Below, in pieces: positions 6,817 to 34,271 of a DNA stretch of 51,682 bases (positions are counted from its first letter, which is position 1; every line of letters begins with the position of its first letter). The stretch spans positions 1-51,682 of IMG/VR virus record IMGVR_UViG_2651869781_000017; one strand, given 5' to 3'. The notes below the pieces were generated by a model. That model did not search any database. It was not told the DNA's origin and saw only the letters and a list, made by a program, of their open reading frames with translations. The translations under genes were made by a program, and so were the position numbers. The DNA is from a virus. Lineage: Duplodnaviria > Heunggongvirae > Uroviricota > Caudoviricetes.

Positions 6817-7299
6817 TTATTTGATAAGAAGTGAAGGTTTCCCAACCTTGAGTTGAGCGCCGGGGATATTTATTCCTGCTTTTAGTTGGTGCTTGATTGC
6901 CAACTTGTCGGCTTTAATTGTCGTTTCAAACTCAACGTATTCAGGAGGAATGGCGCTTGAGTCGATGATTTCTACAGTTTCTAACGGTTTGCGGATTGTT
7001 ACCTGGTGAATACCTGCTCGAATCTTTTTCTTGCCAACCATTTCAAGCGATGACGCTATATATGATTTGATGCTGTCAATTTTATTTTGAATTACTGCTG
7101 CTCGTTCATTCAGTGACTTTGCCTCTTCCTTGAGGCGTTCAGCATAACCAGATTCATTTTTAATGACGGAAAGAAGTTGCTCTATTTTATCGGTAAATTC
7201 TCCTTCCATGCCTTCTATTGTGTCAGCAATCATCTCTGGTTCTAAATCTGAATCCATCAATTTTGCGTATTCATTGGCAATTTCATACAGTTTGCTCAC
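6817..7299 (-). CDS. Gp157-like protein (recombination-module accessory); probable GTG start
   Basis: About 160 aa helical protein immediately downstream of RecT; GGAGG RBS before GTG at 7299. Confidence 0.4.
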   Translation of the reverse strand: MSKLYEIANEYAKLMDSDLEPEMIADTIEGMEGEFTDKIEQLLSVIKNESGYAERLKEEAKSLNERAAVIQNKIDSIKSYIASSLEMVGKKKIRAGIHQVTIRKPLETVEIIDSSAIPPEYVEFETTIKADKLAIKHQLKAGINIPGAQLKVGKPSLLIK

Positions 7300-8194
7300 T
7301 GGCAACCTCCAGTTTCGCTTTGCATTCTGCATAAATGGCTTGTACGTTCTGCTGCAATTTCATCCCAGATGTCAGGCGATATGCTTCTGCAAAATATCGC
7401 TTCAAATCATCCATGTTTTCAGCCTGAGCCATTTCATCACAAAGAAGTTGTGCTTTATCCGTTATTTCCTGCTGGCGTTTCCGTTCATCTTCGCGGATAT
7501 CTTCCTCTGATTTGTGCGGCATAACTGGTTCAGTCCACACACCTTCTTCTTCGTTTAGTACGTGAATAGCACTATCAAGACGTGATGCCTTAGGCCAATA
7601 CTTGCTTGCACGCTTTACGACCGTCTTTCGCGCCATCTCATTCCAGTGATTTACCCATGGTCCTTTATCGCTGAATGCCGCCTTGCTTGTTTTCCTTACA
7701 GCCTCAATTTCAGCCAGACTCATCTCTTCCGTTAGATAATCACCTGCTGGCGTCTTAACTGTGCAGTAAACGCCAACGATATCACCACGATCACCGAAGG
7801 CGTTGTATTTATGGGTTGGTGCTTTATCAAGCCCGTTTGACTCATAGGTATCGTTAGCATGAACAAGTTTTGCCTGACCCCATGAGATAACACCAGACTC
7901 CATTGCAATATGGAGCAATCCCATATAGCTGATATCAAGGCAAACCATGCCGTCGCGAGGAACCAGATAAGCCAGTTTGCTGGCAGGGTTTAAGGTGATG
8001 CCGATCGCCGCAACATTGATGATGGCGTTCTGTGCGCTGGTTGGATTTGCCAGTGCCGTTTTAGCCAGGTAATCATTTTTCTGGAAATACTGAATTGCAA
8101 ACTGGCTTTCCTTAGCCCATGTCACCGTCTGTTCAGTCAATGCTCCGCAGAATAACTGCTCTTGCTGTTTAACGAATTCAACGATATTGCTCAT
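7283..8194 (-). CDS. recT: RecT-family single-strand annealing recombinase
   Basis: 303 aa; conserved RecT core (AIINVAAIGITLNPASKLAYLVPRDG...) and acidic C-terminus. Confidence 0.8.
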   Translation of the reverse strand: MSNIVEFVKQQEQLFCGALTEQTVTWAKESQFAIQYFQKNDYLAKTALANPTSAQNAIINVAAIGITLNPASKLAYLVPRDGMVCLDISYMGLLHIAMESGVISWGQAKLVHANDTYESNGLDKAPTHKYNAFGDRGDIVGVYCTVKTPAGDYLTEEMSLAEIEAVRKTSKAAFSDKGPWVNHWNEMARKTVVKRASKYWPKASRLDSAIHVLNEEEGVWTEPVMPHKSEEDIREDERKRQQEITDKAQLLCDEMAQAENMDDLKRYFAEAYRLTSGMKLQQNVQAIYAECKAKLEVASEQTV

Positions 8195-8502
8195 GCAGCT
8201 TCTCCATAAATATGTCTGCGTTTGAATATTGCGAAGGCATATTCAGCCTTAACTCTTTCGGTTATTGCATCCCAGAACCATTCAGCGGCTTTTTCCTGAT
8301 AGTTACAGTCATCATCTTCCAGCCAGTCGATAGCGTCCTTAGTGTGTTCATCTGGTTTATATGAGCGAAGCATTTCGCTTATTGGGTCGCAACGTTTGCA
8401 GAGGCGATCAACTTCACTGTTGATTCGTTCGTAATCTTCATCAGTAAAGCTTGCGATTATTTGCGATATTTCACGCTTATCATTCAGAGTCAGAATCATC
8501 AT
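8191..8502 (-). CDS. hypothetical protein (103 aa) in lambda gam-equivalent position
   Basis: ORF directly upstream of recT; function not recognisable from sequence. Confidence 0.4.
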   Translation of the reverse strand: MMILTLNDKREISQIIASFTDEDYERINSEVDRLCKRCDPISEMLRSYKPDEHTKDAIDWLEDDDCNYQEKAAEWFWDAITERVKAEYAFAIFKRRHIYGEAA

Positions 8503-8583
8503 CTTTCTCCTGTTCTTTGTGCTGATTGAGCATTTTGTTCATCTGACGAATGAATTCTTCGTCTGACCAGTTATCTGTAAAAC

Positions 8584-8736
8584 TCATTTCCTGCGATACC
8601 ACGGAAGGTTGATAGCTGATTTCATCGCTTTATTTGCTTCAAGCCACATTTTGGAATCACCAATAAATCTGGCTATTACTGCTTTGTTCTGTGCAGCACG
8701 AAGCATCTGGTGATTGATGGCTATTTCATTGCGCAT
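8584..8736 (-). CDS. small protein in kil-equivalent position (50 aa)
   Basis: Short ORF overlapping cIII 3' end; assignment by position only. Confidence 0.3.
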   Translation of the reverse strand: MRNEIAINHQMLRAAQNKAVIARFIGDSKMWLEANKAMKSAINLPWYRRK

Positions 8737-8852
8737 AATAAGACCTCAACTCTTTTCCATCCGTCACGTAATTTACGGGTGATTCGTTCAAGTAAAGATT
8801 CATTTAATTGGAAGGCACCCATGCGAGCGCCTCCCGCGATTGCGTAAATCAT
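8721..8852 (-). CDS. cIII: CIII-like protease inhibitor (43 aa)
   Basis: Translation MIYAIAGGARMGAFQLNESLLERITRKLRDGWKR... closely matches lambda CIII core (ESLLERITRKLRDGWKRL). Confidence 0.7.
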   Translation of the reverse strand: MIYAIAGGARMGAFQLNESLLERITRKLRDGWKRVEVLLCAMK

Positions 8853-8876
8853 GGGTGGTTCCTTATGTTGGTTTTA

Positions 8877-9845
8877 TTAGTAGGTTATTTTTGTTGCGAA
8901 TACTTCGCCTTTTACGATGGCTGTTATGATATTTTTAGCAACATCTTCTGATGCGCCAACCTTGATAAGGTCAGCAAGTATTTTGTTATTTACTTCTTTC
9001 CGGTGAGCTTTATCCTTTGCTCTACGCTCTTCTTCTTCCTTGATTCTTTTTTCTTCTGCTATTCTGGCTTGCTCTTTTGCTTCAGCCTCGCGCAGGATTC
9101 GTTCTGCCTCCTCCTGTGCTTTACGGCGTTCTGCTTCAATTGCCGCATGCTTTTCTCTTTCAGCTCGTTCTGCTGCCTCTTTTGCTTCGCGCTGTGCTCG
9201 TTGCTCGGCTTCAATGCGTTCACGCTCTGCACGTTCCGCTGCGGCCTTAGCTTCTGCTTCTCGCCTTGCTGCTGCTTCAATTTCGGCTTTTGCCTTTGCT
9301 TCGGCTTCAGCTCTGGCTTTCTCTTCAGCTTCTCTTTTTAAGCGTTCTTCATGCTCTCGCTTTTCCTGCTCAGCTTTGAGTCTTGCCTCTTCTCTTTGGC
9401 GGTCAAATTCGCGATCCATCAAAATCGCTATTTCATGGTCAGACTCAATTTGCTTTGCGAGAGCTTCAGCTGCTGCCTTAGCTTCTTCTTCGGCTTTAAT
9501 CCGCGCCTGTTCTTCCTCATAATCAGTAAGAGGCTGGCGCGCCTTGGCTTTCAGTTCATCAAGGCGATCACGCACTGTCTTGCGGTTGGCATCAATTAGC
9601 TTTGGAATTTCCTTAAGTTCAGCAACAAGGTCTTTGCCAAGACCATCGAGATATGTTTTCGTCTGCGCAACTTTATACGCCAGAGAAGCGATCTCCTTTC
9701 TGCCCTTTGCCGTTGTGATATCAGGCACAAAGGACATAACTTCACGTTCAACCTTTTGGAGAATTTCTTCAATCTGGTCGGCAGACTGAAATACAGTCAT
9801 TGCATTTGCTTTTTCAATAACAACTAAATCTGTTACTTCACTCAT
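8877..9845 (-). CDS. hypothetical protein with long EA/R/K-rich low-complexity coiled-coil region
   Basis: 322 aa; about 110 residues of AEAKAKAEIEAAARREAEAKAAAERAERER-type repeats; GGAGGA RBS. Confidence 0.5.
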   Translation of the reverse strand: MSEVTDLVVIEKANAMTVFQSADQIEEILQKVEREVMSFVPDITTAKGRKEIASLAYKVAQTKTYLDGLGKDLVAELKEIPKLIDANRKTVRDRLDELKAKARQPLTDYEEEQARIKAEEEAKAAAEALAKQIESDHEIAILMDREFDRQREEARLKAEQEKREHEERLKREAEEKARAEAEAKAKAEIEAAARREAEAKAAAERAERERIEAEQRAQREAKEAAERAEREKHAAIEAERRKAQEEAERILREAEAKEQARIAEEKRIKEEEERRAKDKAHRKEVNNKILADLIKVGASEDVAKNIITAIVKGEVFATKITY

Positions 9846-9857
9846 ATATCCTCCGTC

Positions 9858-9885
9858 AAAAAATTGCCCTCACATTGGAGGGCAA
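9858..9885 (-). terminator. intrinsic terminator within early-left operon
   Basis: Perfect 8-bp stem (TTGCCCTC/GAGGGCAA) with 6-nt loop followed by T6 on the minus strand, immediately upstream of the 8877-9845 RBS. Confidence 0.5.
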
Positions 9886-9976
9886 AGAAGATTTCCAATA
9901 ATCAGAACAAGTCGGCTCCTGTTTAGTTACGAGCGACATTGCTCACATAGCAGACTCGCAAATCTGCTATAGGCGC

Positions 9977-10138
9977 TTATTCGCATCGCATGACAACATC
10001 AAATTTTTCGAGATTACTTTGTCGCAACAATCCTTCTTCGACGCGGTCAGCTTTTCTATAATTATCAAATTCGAAATGTTTAATTACTTCTTTCGTTTCT
10101 CGCTCTATAACTTCAACGATGTATTTCTTATTCATCAT
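9977..10138 (-). CDS. hypothetical small protein (53 aa)
   Basis: ORF with ATGA overlap to the upstream gene stop. Confidence 0.3.
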   Translation of the reverse strand: MMNKKYIVEVIERETKEVIKHFEFDNYRKADRVEEGLLRQSNLEKFDVVMRCE

Positions 10139-10425
10139 TCTTCCCAAAGAGCTTTGCTGATTGCTGACTGTGCTTTCGATACTTCATCAGGATAATGGTC
10201 ATTCCAGTTTTGCTTGTATGCCTTGTTTAGCATCGCTTGCAGGGCATTTAAAAGGTCAGGTGCTGCCGCTATTAGATTGGCATCTTCAATGCATTGAACT
10301 TCCTCACAGATTGCAATATACGAACGCCAGCCTGCGCCATTTTCAAGTGAGTCTGCCTGGATGATTTTAATCTCATCGCCATCCATCATTATTTCCCACT
10401 TACCTTCGGTACCTTTAAATTCCAT
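10135..10425 (-). CDS. hypothetical protein (96 aa)
   Basis: ORF in pL operon. Confidence 0.4.
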   Translation of the reverse strand: MEFKGTEGKWEIMMDGDEIKIIQADSLENGAGWRSYIAICEEVQCIEDANLIAAAPDLLNALQAMLNKAYKQNWNDHYPDEVSKAQSAISKALWEE

Positions 10426-10464
10426 GTTAGCCTCTGTTGTTTATGCCAAAAATAAAGGCCACCA

Positions 10465-10716
10465 TCAGGCAGCCTTGTTGTAAATGTTGCAGGTATCAAG
10501 TAAGTAATTAGATGGAGCGCCATAAATTATGAATTCATCGTTTGTCGGGTCCATCTCCATCTCTTGGCCTATTGCCATTCTTGCGTCAGTGTCATCAGCG
10601 GCGAAGCATAAAACAGCCCACGCACCCATTGTTTTAAAAAGAACTGCAATTGGCTGTGGTTTTACTGAATTTGCGTTAGCGCGAAAATCACAAATCGCAC
10701 TTTCATGAAATTCCAT
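10465..10716 (-). CDS. hypothetical protein (83 aa)
   Basis: ORF in pL operon. Confidence 0.4.
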   Translation of the reverse strand: MEFHESAICDFRANANSVKPQPIAVLFKTMGAWAVLCFAADDTDARMAIGQEMEMDPTNDEFIIYGAPSNYLLDTCNIYNKAA

Positions 10717-10724
10717 ATCTCACC

Positions 10725-10889
10725 TCAAATAAGTGGTTTGCCGCGAAAATAAATACGTTCCCACCAAGTTCCGTATCTATCTATCCAGTTACACCAATCA
10801 TCGACACTCCATTTTGTTGTGTCGCATTTTGGCAATTGGCATGAATATCTACCTTCTTTGTAAAGTCGGCGTTTGACTTTCTTGAGCAT
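10725..10889 (-). CDS. hypothetical Cys-rich small protein (54 aa)
   Basis: ORF MLKKVKRRLYKEGRYSCQLPKCDTTKWSVDDWCNW... immediately downstream of N. Confidence 0.3.
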   Translation of the reverse strand: MLKKVKRRLYKEGRYSCQLPKCDTTKWSVDDWCNWIDRYGTWWERIYFRGKPLI

Positions 10890-10897
10890 GGCTCACC

Positions 10898-11203
10898 TCA
10901 ATCGTAATAAGCTGGAATTGATTTTCCGCGTCGCTTCTGGCGGCCTGAGCAGGTCACACCCATTTCACTGCGTGGCTTGCGGTAGTAAATACGGTTCTGT
11001 TTACGCTCAACTTCTTCTGCCTTCTTGCAGCGAAGGCTTCCTAGTGATGCTGCTTTGTCTGCTCTGACGCAACCAGAGAGCTTTAGCGCAATTTTTCGCG
11101 CCAGTCGCTGTTCTTGCATTGCCTGCTCACGTTGAGCCTGTCTGCGTGCTCTGCGGCGATTTCTGGCGTTATCGTCAGCCAGATATGTAATGACTACTGC
11201 CAT
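10898..11203 (-). CDS. N: antitermination protein N (P22 gene 24 equivalent)
   Basis: 101 aa; N-terminal arginine-rich motif; C-terminus ...GVTCSGRQKRRGKSIP matches lambda N ...GITCSGRQKIKGKSIP; GGAGG RBS. Confidence 0.85.
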   Translation of the reverse strand: MAVVITYLADDNARNRRRARRQAQREQAMQEQRLARKIALKLSGCVRADKAASLGSLRCKKAEEVERKQNRIYYRKPRSEMGVTCSGRQKRRGKSIPAYYD

Positions 11204-11310
11204 GTTGACCTCCGATGATTGACTTTGGCGGTGACGCGCCGGGTGCTTATCTTCCGGTTGCCGTCGTGCAGCTGCACTTCACGTCACCCCAAAGCCAACT
11301 ACTCTTTGGT

Positions 11311-11352
11311 TCCCGCATTTCGGCGGGACAATCCCATCAATGTTAAAGAGCC
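11311..11352 (-). promoter_or_regulatory. nutL (boxA GGCTCTTTAA plus boxB hairpin)
   Basis: On minus strand boxA-like GCTCTTTAA followed 14 nt later by hairpin TCCCGC-CGAAAT-GCGGGA, identical to the hairpin at nutR. Confidence 0.7.
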
Positions 11353-11399
11353 TGCCAATCTGTTCCGTTTGGCTTCCAGCGTCCTGCTGATGGCTAAAG

Positions 11400-11484
11400 A
11401 ATACTGTAGGTATTTTATTGTGTAAATACCAAAGGTATTTATTTTTGATGAAATAATGATAAACAAATGAATACAAAGGATATT
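11400..11484. promoter_or_regulatory. OL operator cluster (three AATAC-N5-GTATT sites) with pL
   Basis: Palindromes at 11400-11414, 11425-11439 and 11470-11484 (third has one mismatch); same motif as at OR. Confidence 0.65.
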
Positions 11485-11570
11485 TATTTTTTTGCTGTCT
11501 GCTTGTTCAGTGATTTTTATGCGGGATATGTGAAGTGGATCCCGATAGCTATTGCTGCCGGGATTATGGG

Positions 11571-11939
11571 TTAGTCAGCGAAGGTTAAGACGAGAATTAC
11601 CTTAATGATGTCTGCTACAACAGACACGGCCATAGATAAACCAAAGACGATCCAAGCCACAGTGATGTCTTCACTACCATCGTATAGAGTTCCGTAATCA
11701 CTGGTGTAAGGCGTAAATGTCGCGCCTTGATACAATAGGTATAAGCTTGATCCATAGAGGATAAATGCAGATATCCCTTGTATTGCTATGATCACAAGAA
11801 TCATGAAACGAGCTGATCTATGCGCCCAAGCCTGGCTTATTTTTTCTGATAGAGATTTCGCAATAAAAGCATGCGCTAAGCCGTAAATTGTCGAGATTGC
11901 CAACATCCCAAAAAAGCTTGCTATAGCGGTTCCAACCAT
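11571..11939 (-). CDS. small multi-pass membrane protein co-transcribed with cI (rexB-position cargo)
   Basis: About 122 aa from ATG 11939 (129 aa if the TTG at 11960 overlapping the cI stop is used); four hydrophobic segments; AAGGGG RBS. Confidence 0.6.
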   Translation of the reverse strand: MVGTAIASFFGMLAISTIYGLAHAFIAKSLSEKISQAWAHRSARFMILVIIAIQGISAFILYGSSLYLLYQGATFTPYTSDYGTLYDGSEDITVAWIVFGLSMAVSVVADIIKVILVLTFAD

Positions 11940-11956
11940 AAGCGCCCCTTGCGTGA

Positions 11957-12673
11957 TCAAACCAGCCTTAGTTTTGTCTCAATTGCAACGCCTATAATCT
12001 TGCAGTTTCCATTGATTGGCACGAGAGGCCATGCAGGGTTAAGTCCCTTGAGGTATTTATTTCCGCCGTCGATTATCAGCTTCTTGAATGTTGCTTCGTT
12101 AGAGTCAGAAAGTTTTGCTATGACCAAGCTGCCGTTGATCGCCTCCCTTCCGGTATCGAAAAGAACGAATGTTCCCTCTGGAATGCTTAACCCAACCGGT
12201 GCCGTCATTGAATCACCTTCCACTTTAAGCCAGAACGCATTACCTTGAATATGCGCGTCAGACTCAAGCCAAACATCTATGTCTTTAATGGTGTATGGTT
12301 CGCATGCTTCACACCACGAGCCAGCCTGGATACTGCTTAACACCGGATACCTCTTTCCTGCTCTGTATTCCCCTGCATACCTTACGTTGGCATCGCTCTT
12401 AAGGCTTTCTGCCTGTTCTGCAACCTTGGCAGCAATTGACTGGCTAAAATCAGCAATTGAGACTTGCAACAGTCGTGCAAAACCAGATGCAACCTCAACG
12501 TTTAGCGCGTTTCTGCCATTAAGATAATGCCCTACCGCTCCTTGGGTGATACCCAGTTCATCAGCGATTGAGTATTGGGTTATTCCCAATTCTTTCTTTT
12601 TTGACTCATACAAAGCCTTAAGCCGCTTAGCGTCTTCGAGCTGTTCTGTCGTCAGTGATTTTTTATTTTCCAT
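11957..12673 (-). CDS. cI: CI-type prophage repressor (HTH_XRE plus S24 LexA-like peptidase domain)
   Basis: 238 aa; N-terminal HTH (QYSIADELGITQGAVGHYLNG) and C-terminal S24 self-cleavage domain; divergent from cro across operator region. Confidence 0.88.
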   Translation of the reverse strand: MENKKSLTTEQLEDAKRLKALYESKKKELGITQYSIADELGITQGAVGHYLNGRNALNVEVASGFARLLQVSIADFSQSIAAKVAEQAESLKSDANVRYAGEYRAGKRYPVLSSIQAGSWCEACEPYTIKDIDVWLESDAHIQGNAFWLKVEGDSMTAPVGLSIPEGTFVLFDTGREAINGSLVIAKLSDSNEATFKKLIIDGGNKYLKGLNPAWPLVPINGNCKIIGVAIETKLRLV

Positions 12674-12980: not shown

Positions 12981-13024
12981 CGCTCTTTAACAGTCATGGT
13001 CCTCATTCCCGCCGAAATGCGGGA
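12981..13024 (+). promoter_or_regulatory. nutR (boxA CGCTCTTTAA plus boxB hairpin)
   Basis: boxA consensus-like CGCTCTTTA followed 16 nt later by TCCCGC-CGAAAT-GCGGGA hairpin; located between cro and cII. Confidence 0.7.
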
Positions 13025-13082
13025 ATACAACGCGCATAAGTTGATGCGCATAACTTCTTATTTGTTAAGGAAATACTTACAT

Positions 13083-32939: not shown

Positions 32940-34271
32940 ATGGCTACGTGGCAACAGGGTATTAATTCTGGTGGTTTTCTTGCTGGCATCGGTACGCAAA
33001 ATGAGAATGCGCCAAAGGCAAGCGACATTAACGCAACGCTTGGCCTGATCCGCGAAAACAATGAACTGGCTCGCTCAGGTGCAAATAACGTTGGTCTGAC
33101 CGCGTTACGTGGTCTGGCTGGAGTTGCTGATATTTACAATCAGGAACAGCAACAGAAAGCTATTAGTGCGTTCAATAAGGTTCACGCTGATGCATGGGCT
33201 TCTGGTGATCCATCTGGACTATTTAAGTTTGCCCAGGAAAATCCAGCGTTTGTTGCACAGGCACAACAGGCGTTTTCCGGTCTTAATGAGCAGCAACGCA
33301 ACGATATGGGCGAGTTAGCCATGAGGGCTAACGTCGCTCTTTCTCAGGGACCGGAAGCCTACAGTAAATTCATTACTGACAACAAGGACGGGTTAAATCG
33401 TGTGGGTGCGAATGCTGACTGGATGATTCAGACAGGTATTCAGAATCCAGAGCAGCTATCACACATGCTGACTACTATGACGCTAGGGGCTGTTGGTCCG
33501 GATAAAATGCTGGATTATCAGGATAAGATGGTTGGTCGCCAACTAGAGAAAGGGAGATTGGATGAAAGCATCCGTCAGGCTGATATGGAGAATGCGAGAG
33601 GATGGGCAAATATCCAGAACGCTCAACTAGACAGGGCTCAGCGGGCACAAATGCATAATGATAACGTAGCCCTGAAGTTGCAGGAATTAGGGATGAAACA
33701 ACAGGAAAGCGGAAAGATTGACCCAAAACTTGTTCGAGATCTGAATAGTGATATTAATGGGTTCTCAAAGAATTATTCTGCAATGCGCAGTGCTTCTGAC
33801 AACCTACAAGCCCTTGGGAAGCGCAACACTCCAGCCGCGCAGTTGGGAATGATTTTCAACTATATGAAATCGCTGGATCCGCAATCTGTGGTACGCGAAG
33901 GTGAGCAAGTGCAGGTAAAACGCACTGATGGAATATTCGGCACACTTGGTAACTATGTTAGCCAATTATCTAACGGCAAGATGCTGAATAATGAGCAAGT
34001 CCAGGACTTAATCAACACCTCAAAACTGATGGCAAATACTGAAGGCCAAAAGTTTAATCAGCAAATGGATGATTATCTTTCAACTTATGGAGATTCTCTC
34101 CCCAGCGGACTAACTAAGCAATTGCAATCCAGAAAAGCCAAGCTGTATGAAGATATTCAGCAGCCTGCACAACAACAGAGCAATAACCAACAACCGACAA
34201 ATACCCAACAGCAGCAGAGTCAATCCGGATCATATACCTCAAAATCAGGCATTCAATTTACGGTGGAATGA
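32940..34271 (+). CDS. ejection protein (gp20-like)
   Basis: 443 aa; synteny. Confidence 0.7.

Follow-up and report, generated by a model that had tools for sequence, protein, structure and literature searches.

The window, the whole 51,682-nt stretch of DNA analysed here (virus record IMGVR_UViG_2651869781_000017), carries on its minus strand a lambdoid early left (pL) operon with a gene order comparable to that of lambda. Within this operon an intrinsic terminator stands directly before a 322-codon gene whose product has a long middle region rich in Ala, Glu, Lys and Arg. We regard it as likely that this junction joins a homologue of the lambda small RNA (sRNA) PreS, ending in the terminator tL2a, to a gene of the Sf6 gp33/D3 Orf53/phi80 Agt family that would be gated by the antiterminator N and that, at a guess, encodes an accessory of the phage recombination (Rec) module. 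The terminator is already known and current understanding is not overturned; what had been seen as a terminator before a gene is read here as an sRNA gene doubling as an N-controlled gate. The parts of the junction, all on the minus strand, are as follows.

9944..9858, minus: 87-nt PreS/LPR1 homologue (5' stem-loop, unpaired middle, terminator hairpin and U-tail), from alignment to lambda
9885..9864 (stem) and 9863..9858 (T6), minus: intrinsic terminator, lambda tL2a homologue and PreS/LPR1 3' end, from a consensus terminator scan
9857..9846, minus: leader with Shine-Dalgarno (SD) sequence GGAGG, from direct reading and alignment to lambda
9845..8877, minus: open reading frame (ORF) of 322 aa, ATG to TAA, from the ORF list
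9845..9525, minus: conserved helical N-terminal domain, aa 1-107, from family alignments and an AlphaFold2 (AF2) model (predicted local distance difference test, pLDDT, 89; helices 12-20, 22-37 and 46 onward)
9524..8991, minus: charged A/E/K/R-rich helix, aa 108-285, from composition, charge periodicity and AF2
8990..8880, minus: small C-terminal domain and tail, aa 286-322, with conserved terminal Tyr, from AF2 (helix 300-311, low-confidence tail 318-322)

A homologue of lambda PreS and tL2a before the gene

An earlier note on this DNA had placed a hairpin and six T residues at 9858-9885 on the minus strand, inside the pL operon and immediately before the ribosome-binding site (RBS) of the 322-aa gene, and its coordinates are correct, since the hairpin, T6, GGAGG and ATG are all found there. 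The hairpin, TTGCCCTC-CAATGT-GAGGGCAA in the consensus scan, has eight pairs, five of them G-C, and a 6-nt loop followed by TTTTTT, and is of the intrinsic terminator type; folded alone it reaches -13.2 kcal/mol (z = -3.8 relative to shuffled sequences). Past the T-tract GGAGG is met at 4 nt and the ATG (9845) at 12 nt, with GGAGG 6 nt upstream of the ATG. By alignment this hairpin is a homologue of lambda tL2a, which has been described before: in the Sf6 record it bears the label 'terminator; homology to phage lambda; tL2A' and lies within boundary sequence bsq4, and that of mEp234 has a rho-independent terminator at the same place. The view that the hairpin is a gate before the gene holds as far as termination goes, but it is not merely a gate, as it would also form the Hfq-binding 3' end of a conserved 87-nt sRNA.

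In lambda the interval between ral and ea10 encodes an Hfq-dependent sRNA, LPR1, renamed PreS, of ~88 nt processed to ~68 nt, whose 3' end is tL2a (bioRxiv 10.1101/2024.10.31.621285). PreS is present in the lytic and not the lysogenic state, appearing on lytic induction, and through a seed in its unpaired region it activates translation of host dnaN and represses alaS, while deletion of the seed leads to less phage DNA replication (10.1101/2024.10.31.621285). The evidence comprises northern blot signal, Hfq enrichment, target chimeras, and seed and compensatory mutations that alter dnaN-gfp (10.1101/2024.10.31.621285), lambda PreS activating this kind of translational reporter roughly 4-fold, and the findings are repeated in a review (PMC12197685).

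Window 9944..9858 and lambda 34011..33925 are identical at 85 of 87 positions in an ungapped alignment, and the Sf6 and mEp234 copies match that of the window at 86 of 87. Both substitutions relative to lambda lie in the terminator, where a loop G is replaced by A and the closing U.G becomes U-A, the window hairpin being marginally stabler than lambda's (-12.9 kcal/mol). The predicted fold of the whole RNA is the same in the two phages (-29.2 kcal/mol, z -3.9, in the window against -28.9 kcal/mol), and the setting is also alike: the element, ending in a G+C hairpin and U6, comes behind the ral-side genes and is immediately followed by the gene preceding cIII. The gene behind it differs, however, being gp33-like and not ea10, and in the window two extra ORFs separate the element from the ral-side terminator. 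Because the copy is identical to lambda's outside the terminator hairpin, any PreS seed would be intact and the RNA would very probably act as it does in lambda, raising translation of host dnaN.

The surrounding 1.4-kb region (window 8700-10100, cIII and kil included) is 98-99% identical to many lambdoid phages, and for most of them the homology begins exactly at 9944. The 87-nt element is found in 325 phage records, 323 of which hold it full length at 90% identity or more; it is almost never annotated, and a search of window 8500-12500 against Rfam (E<=1), which has no model for the element, matched no family. Behind the element lambda and Stx phage 1717 have an ea10-like gene, Sf6, mEp234 and the window have a gp33 family member, and in mEpX1 and HK75 cIII follows directly. 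Terminator and sRNA therefore form a conserved module of their own, the 322-aa gene being one of several cassettes that can be exchanged behind it. mEpX1 and HK75 are HK022-type phages, which use putL RNA or Nun and not N; their cIII genes lie directly after PreS (HK75 and mEpX1: L018 1501-1621; L017 1501-1585), and the annotated start of the mEpX1 cIII coding sequence, probably mis-called, overlaps the sRNA.

An inverted repeat, TAGCAGA-n8-TCTGCTA (~9948-9969, minus), abuts the 5' end of PreS at 9944. Lambda has a hairpin of other sequence, GTGTATTCA-n9-TGAATACAC, at the same position, so that position is conserved and sequence is not; the repeat may serve in processing, or may protect the 3' end of the upstream mRNA.

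Probable N antitermination and the leader of the gene

The components that would carry polymerase through the terminator are present in the window:

11351..11306, minus: nutL, with boxA GCTCTTTAACA (11351..11341) and boxB hairpin UCCCGC-CGAAAU-GCGGGA, downstream of pL
11203..10898, minus: N-like antiterminator gene (phrog_271 'anti-termination protein N-like', E 6e-36) with Arg-rich motif NARNRRRARRQAQR
12982-13025, plus: nutR, with the same boxA (12982-12992) and the same boxB, downstream of the cro-side ORF

The rrn-like boxA GCTCTTTAACA occurs in exactly two perfect copies in the window, each followed by an identical boxB, TCCCGCCGAAATGCGGGA. It had been proposed that expression of the 322-aa gene would depend on N antitermination, and this is reasonable given the N-like protein, the two nut sites, the match to lambda and the 12-nt gap between terminator and ATG, which leaves no room for a promoter. 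By analogy with lambda the gene is probably N-dependent, and its product would be delayed-early because read-through of tL2a needs N-modified polymerase.

The leader itself shares the motif GAGGATAT with the lambda ea10 leader, the similarity ending at the start codon. In the minimum free energy fold of window 9846-9895 (minus) the SD sequence GGAGGAU is paired with AUCUUCU just 5' of the terminator hairpin, a pairing that would sequester the RBS in read-through transcripts and that is not seen in the corresponding fold of the lambda leader.

The 322-aa protein belongs to a large phage family

The earlier note had called the protein family unrecognisable; annotation and homology identify it as that of Sf6 gp33, D3 Orf53 and phi80 Agt. 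Counterparts of the gene with 98-99% identity occur in mEp043, Sf6, mEp234, CUS-3 and other phages, and the protein is that of Sf6 gene 33, noted in the Sf6 record as 'similar to D3 orf53'. Over its full length it matches PHROG 1376 (function unknown; E 7e-109), and its N-terminal 115 aa and the remainder also match separate PHROGs. Sf6 gp33, a hypothetical protein, is essentially the same gene in the same slot and with the same terminator (98.5% DNA identity). The Pseudomonas phage D3 protein Orf53, likewise hypothetical, shares the N-domain (about 55% identity) and the architecture, but is longer (354 aa) through an insertion after the N-domain, and directly precedes Erf and a YqaJ exonuclease.

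Agt of phi80 (Lula; AFV29176) is 51% identical to the window protein end to end (E 5e-65). The two proteins are equal in length (322 aa) and agree in N-domain, charged helix and C-terminal Tyr, and both are encoded in a pL operon upstream of recombination genes. They differ in context: phi80 agt directly precedes gamL and is preceded by a hypothetical gene in place of a PreS element, whereas in the window there is no GamL or Gam and cIII and kil follow. Since cIII lies directly downstream, the slot of the window gene is that held by ea10 in lambda, from tL2a/PreS to cIII, and the leader/RBS motif is common to both; Ea10, however, is of 122 aa and has no sequence similarity to the window protein (BLASTP E 1.4), and we therefore rejected it as a homologue in favour of an alternative cassette.

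A tblastn search with the N-terminal 121 aa retrieved 157 phage records, from phages of Escherichia, Pseudomonas, Vibrio, Klebsiella, Erwinia, Shewanella, Acinetobacter, Aeromonas, Sinorhizobium and Iodobacter. Compared with 1.84 billion representative proteins, an N-domain profile matched 5,734 clusters (formed at 50% identity) with E<=1e-3, of which 1,537 had E<=1e-30, and DNA encoding this domain is present in 509 of 5,426 complete E. coli genomes (about 9%), 2,277 of which hold some part of the 1.4-kb region. On this homology the protein is a new member of a common, very large and functionally uncharacterised phage family. The fold searches were uninformative: Foldseek with the full-length model returned nothing better than E 3 from the PDB, a structure search of BFVD returned unnamed family members only, and the N-domain had no informative fold match. 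A PDB sequence search gave a low-complexity match alone (E 0.025). Scans of the protein against Pfam (E<=1), NCBIfam and PADLOC gave no meaningful match, and 101 diverse full-length family members matched no relevant Pfam family. A resemblance to DUF1351 (PF07083), known from Gram-positive phage proteins near recombination genes, found no support, the model matching neither the window protein (E<=1) nor any of the 101 members (E<=0.01). Literature searches around TolA/cIII/kil and GamL found nothing on the function of the family, and the main text of a 2025 survey of lambdoid Rec modules does not mention it.

The 101 members have a median length of 349 aa. In all of them R49, K63, K71 and P105 are invariant, and 83 of them end in Tyr and 7 in Phe; another family alignment (A1) shows H281, L293, A303 and Y322 to be invariant. 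The window protein has the N-domain motif VPD-x-[ST]T-x-KGR-xx-IAS-x-A-x-KV...KT...D..GK and RxPLT.

The charged middle region is predicted to be a single α-helix

The whole protein contains 19.6% Glu, 18.6% Ala, 11.2% Lys and 10.2% Arg, and between residues ~108 and 285 A/E/K/R account for 79% and hydrophobic residues for 11%. This stretch had been described as a central third made of a periodic A/E/R/K repeat. The bias and the periodicity are there, but the stretch comprises 55% of the protein, and the pattern is that of an ER/K helix and not of a tandem repeat. Opposite charges are paired at i/i+4 on 59 occasions against 28.6 expected (z 7.5), like charges are depleted at i/i+4 (z -4.9) and enriched at i+8 (z 5.8), hydrophobic residues at positions a and d reach at most 12% in any heptad register, and there is no lag-7 signal. 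Across the 101 members the middle averages 68% A/E/K/R/Q, and the i/i+4 opposite-charge excess has a mean z of 4.3. The region is predicted from these statistics to be an ER/K single α-helix (SAH) and not a coiled coil, ~27 nm long if fully extended. ER/K SAH domains occur in myosin VI/X and caldesmon. The window region resembles them in its high E/K/R/A content and strong i/i+4 opposite-charge pairing without a hydrophobic heptad, and differs from classical E4K4 SAHs in being richer in Ala and of prokaryotic/viral origin, and in being known here from sequence only.

The full-length AF2 model has helices at 12-20, 22-38, 46-179, 189-295 and 300-311, with a mean pLDDT of 81.6 and a predicted TM-score (pTM) of 0.30. 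The low pTM, and a pLDDT below 50 at the break between the two long helices (180-188), led us to treat the fold-back of the model as unreliable.

Variants of the protein in E. coli range from 245 to 333 aa through indels of 11, 22, 26, 29, 32, 36, 47 or 48 aa, which are confined to aa 128-256 and, with one exception, to 176-256. The region includes one imperfect 22-aa duplication (198-219 and 220-241, 13/22 identical), and the indels are consistent with slippage between its copies. The length of 322 aa is nevertheless retained in homologues from Enterobacter, Cronobacter, Citrobacter and Salmonella down to about 75% identity, a hint that helix length matters, and this conserved length suggests a spacer or ruler.

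Overlapping the gene on the plus strand are ORFs of 160, 112, 82 and 81 aa, and two frames of that strand have only 4 and 5 stops across the 969 nt. That long antisense ORFs here are spurious, as the earlier note had it, is correct, but DNA repetitiveness is not their cause: at the DNA level there are only degenerate repeats (65-89%) spaced in multiples of 3 and a weak 6-nt array (Tandem Repeats Finder score 36), and the ORFs are by-products of the GAA/GCN/AAR/CGN codon bias.

Family members lie beside recombination genes

The gene neighbourhood is the strongest clue to function. In 11 of the 12 phage genomes inspected the family member lies within three genes of a single-strand annealing protein, in the following orders.

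phi80: agt, gamL, recT, exo
D3: orf53, erf, YqaJ exonuclease
phiLM21: gp10, erf, exonuclease, ninB
phiV039C: erf, ssb, family member
RCIP0034: family member, two small ORFs, ERF
PhiPLPE: recE, recT, family member, rdgC
phiARM81mr: exoVIII, recT, family member
ZP9: ERF, exo, one ORF, family member, RdgC
TCUAN1: family member, bet
phiPSA1: family member, AAA_24 (Sak4-type)
window/Sf6: family member, cIII, kil, one or two small ORFs, RecT or Erf

Family members thus have RecT, Erf, Bet or Sak4 as neighbours, joined in some phages by an exonuclease, and because the link spans four unrelated families of annealing protein their role would be tied to the recombination/DNA-end module and not to one partner.

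Proposed role

In our proposal the segment 9944..9858 (minus) would be a PreS/LPR1 homologue whose G+C hairpin and U-tail constitute tL2a, and polymerase from pL, modified by N at nutL, would read through this terminator and then transcribe the 322-aa gene. The product would be a cytoplasmic protein of three parts, a helical N-domain of ~107 aa rich in basic residues, an ER/K helix of ~27 nm, and a C-domain of ~37 aa ending in Tyr, in which the helix would act as a rigid spacer between the two domains. We speculate that the protein serves the recombination and DNA-end-processing module as an accessory or adaptor, holding two partners a fixed distance apart, and the modulation of GamL toxicity recorded for phi80 could then be one manifestation of this adaptor role.

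More doubtful, and put forward tentatively, is a general form of the idea in which the family would be an unrecognised core accessory of phage recombination modules, a molecular ruler with its ends ~27 nm apart whose basic N-domain and Tyr-ended tail would bind different partners (annealing protein/exonuclease, DNA end, host nuclease or replisome component). If true, this would be among the first functional SAH spacers described in a bacteriophage protein. The family comprises thousands of clusters in proteobacterial phages, with no Pfam model and one genetic hint of function, that from phi80, and is a reasonable target for studies of phage recombination, recombineering efficiency and RecBCD evasion. 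The 87-nt sRNA PreS, functional in lambda, is unannotated here and in almost every one of the 325 phage records with a copy of it, and should be annotated.

Several points weigh against this explanation. Synteny is guilt by association, and the Vibrio phage 1.139.B neighbourhood has no recognisable recombination gene, while in the window cIII, kil and a 103-aa ORF intervene between the 322-aa gene and recT. The phi80 designation 'anti-toxin for Gam / Mog' comes from GenBank notes, and tblastn found no GamL or lambda Gam in the 51.7-kb window or within 2.5-3.5 kb on either side of the family member in the other 11 phages. The SAH assignment rests on sequence statistics, and AF2 breaks the helix at 180-188, a possible hairpin. 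Terminator efficiency and sRNA production in the window phage, and likewise its dependence on N, are taken over from lambda by homology, and the work on PreS is a preprint in which the seed position is not stated in the text (10.1101/2024.10.31.621285).

Alternative explanations

The middle region might instead be an antiparallel or parallel coiled coil of the SMC, Rad50 or MukB style joining the N- and C-domains. Such coiled coils are often used by recombination-associated proteins, RefSeq labels the protein 'coiled-coil domain-containing protein', and the two long helices of the AF2 model, parted by a break, are compatible with a hairpin. We find this improbable, as the sparse hydrophobic residues favour positions a and d in no register, the excess of opposite and deficit of like charges at i/i+4 are typical of ER/K helices, and the model has a pTM of 0.30 and, at the break, a pLDDT below 50; moreover only one arm of the putative hairpin carries the 11-48 aa indels of homologues, which would throw an antiparallel coiled coil out of register. 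A different function for the protein, that of a dedicated antitoxin or modifier of a Gam-type RecBCD inhibitor whose sole job is to neutralise its partner's toxicity, is suggested by its full-length 51% identity to phi80 Agt, equal in size and encoded directly upstream of gamL, and by the phi80 record, in which agt is noted as 'anti-toxin for Gam; Mog (modifier of Gam)' and the adjacent gamL as 'toxic without Mog'. As GamL/Gam was not found in the window or in the flanks examined, this cannot be the family's general role; most members are directly followed by Erf, RecT or Bet instead, and the 103-aa ORF before recT in the window is not GamL-like. As the sole job of the window protein we judge it distinctly improbable.

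For the RNA element, the alternative is that the hairpin is only a leaky terminator or mRNA stabiliser and the 60 nt upstream of it a boundary sequence for recombination between mosaic modules, with no sRNA involved. In its favour are the annotation of this stretch in Sf6 as boundary sequence bsq4, the coincidence of the element with the exact junction where homology between phages starts and stops, and its want of an Rfam family. We nevertheless hold it to be very unlikely, in view of the northern, Hfq, chimera and seed-mutation/dnaN-gfp evidence for the lambda RNA (10.1101/2024.10.31.621285), the identity of the window copy to lambda throughout the non-terminator body, and the preservation of 323 phage copies at 90% identity or more across the 87 nt despite differing flanks. 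Scarcely credible, lastly, is a TolA-like or colicin-import-like envelope protein, the source of which is the name 'cell envelope biogenesis protein TolA' or 'colicin import membrane protein' given in many database records. Domain II of TolA is also a long Ala/Glu/Lys-rich helix, but likeness to the window protein is confined to this low-complexity helix, the N- and C-domains being unrelated to those of TolA. There is also no TolA or other model in NCBIfam or Pfam at E<=1 and no hydrophobic segment or N-terminal anchor (the highest Kyte-Doolittle value in a 19-aa window is 1.03), RefSeq also names identical genes 'coiled-coil domain-containing' or 'hypothetical', and the genomic setting is a phage early operon. 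The TolA/colicin import label is a low-complexity artefact, and its replacement by 'Rec-module-associated ER/K-helix protein' would correct the annotation.

Other features of the early left operon

The remaining genes and signals of the operon, all on the minus strand and listed in their order from the repressor, are these.

12673..11957, minus: cI-like repressor
near 11426..11398, minus: pL-like promoter
between the N-like gene and the PreS/tL2a element, minus: four small ORFs
9944..9858, then 9845..8877, minus: PreS/tL2a element, then the 322-aa gene
8852..8721, minus: cIII, directly 3' of the 322-aa gene, annotated on identical sequence in Sf6, mEp234 and E. coli
8736..8584, minus: kil
8502..8191, minus: 103-aa acidic ORF (phrog_3486) between kil and recT, with a 4-nt overlap of the recT start
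8194..7283, minus: RecT (PF03837)
7332..6817, minus: Sipho_Gp157/'Mu Gam-like' protein (PF05565, E 4e-38; PHROG 253 'Mu Gam-like end protection')

The 103-aa ORF upstream of recT was considered as a GamL equivalent and rejected, having no similarity to GamL. The Sipho_Gp157 gene comes directly after RecT and overlaps the recT 3' end; its product is likely to be a DNA-end-protection or anti-nuclease part of the Rec module, replacing lambda Gam.

Further upstream a second terminator-like hairpin, AAGGCTGCC-TGAT-GGTGGCCTT (10476..10455, minus), followed by TATTTTT, overlaps the end of an 83-aa ORF (10716..10465). It is homologous to the lambda sequence just 3' of ral, which in lambda lies ~70 nt upstream of PreS; the two extra ORFs that stand between this ral-side terminator and PreS in the window are of 96 aa (phrog_1273) and 53 aa (phrog_6949). 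Between the cI-like repressor and pL an ORF of 122 aa (11939..11571, minus) encodes a hydrophobic, membrane-like protein and, being in the lambda rexA/rexB slot, could be a prophage-expressed exclusion gene.

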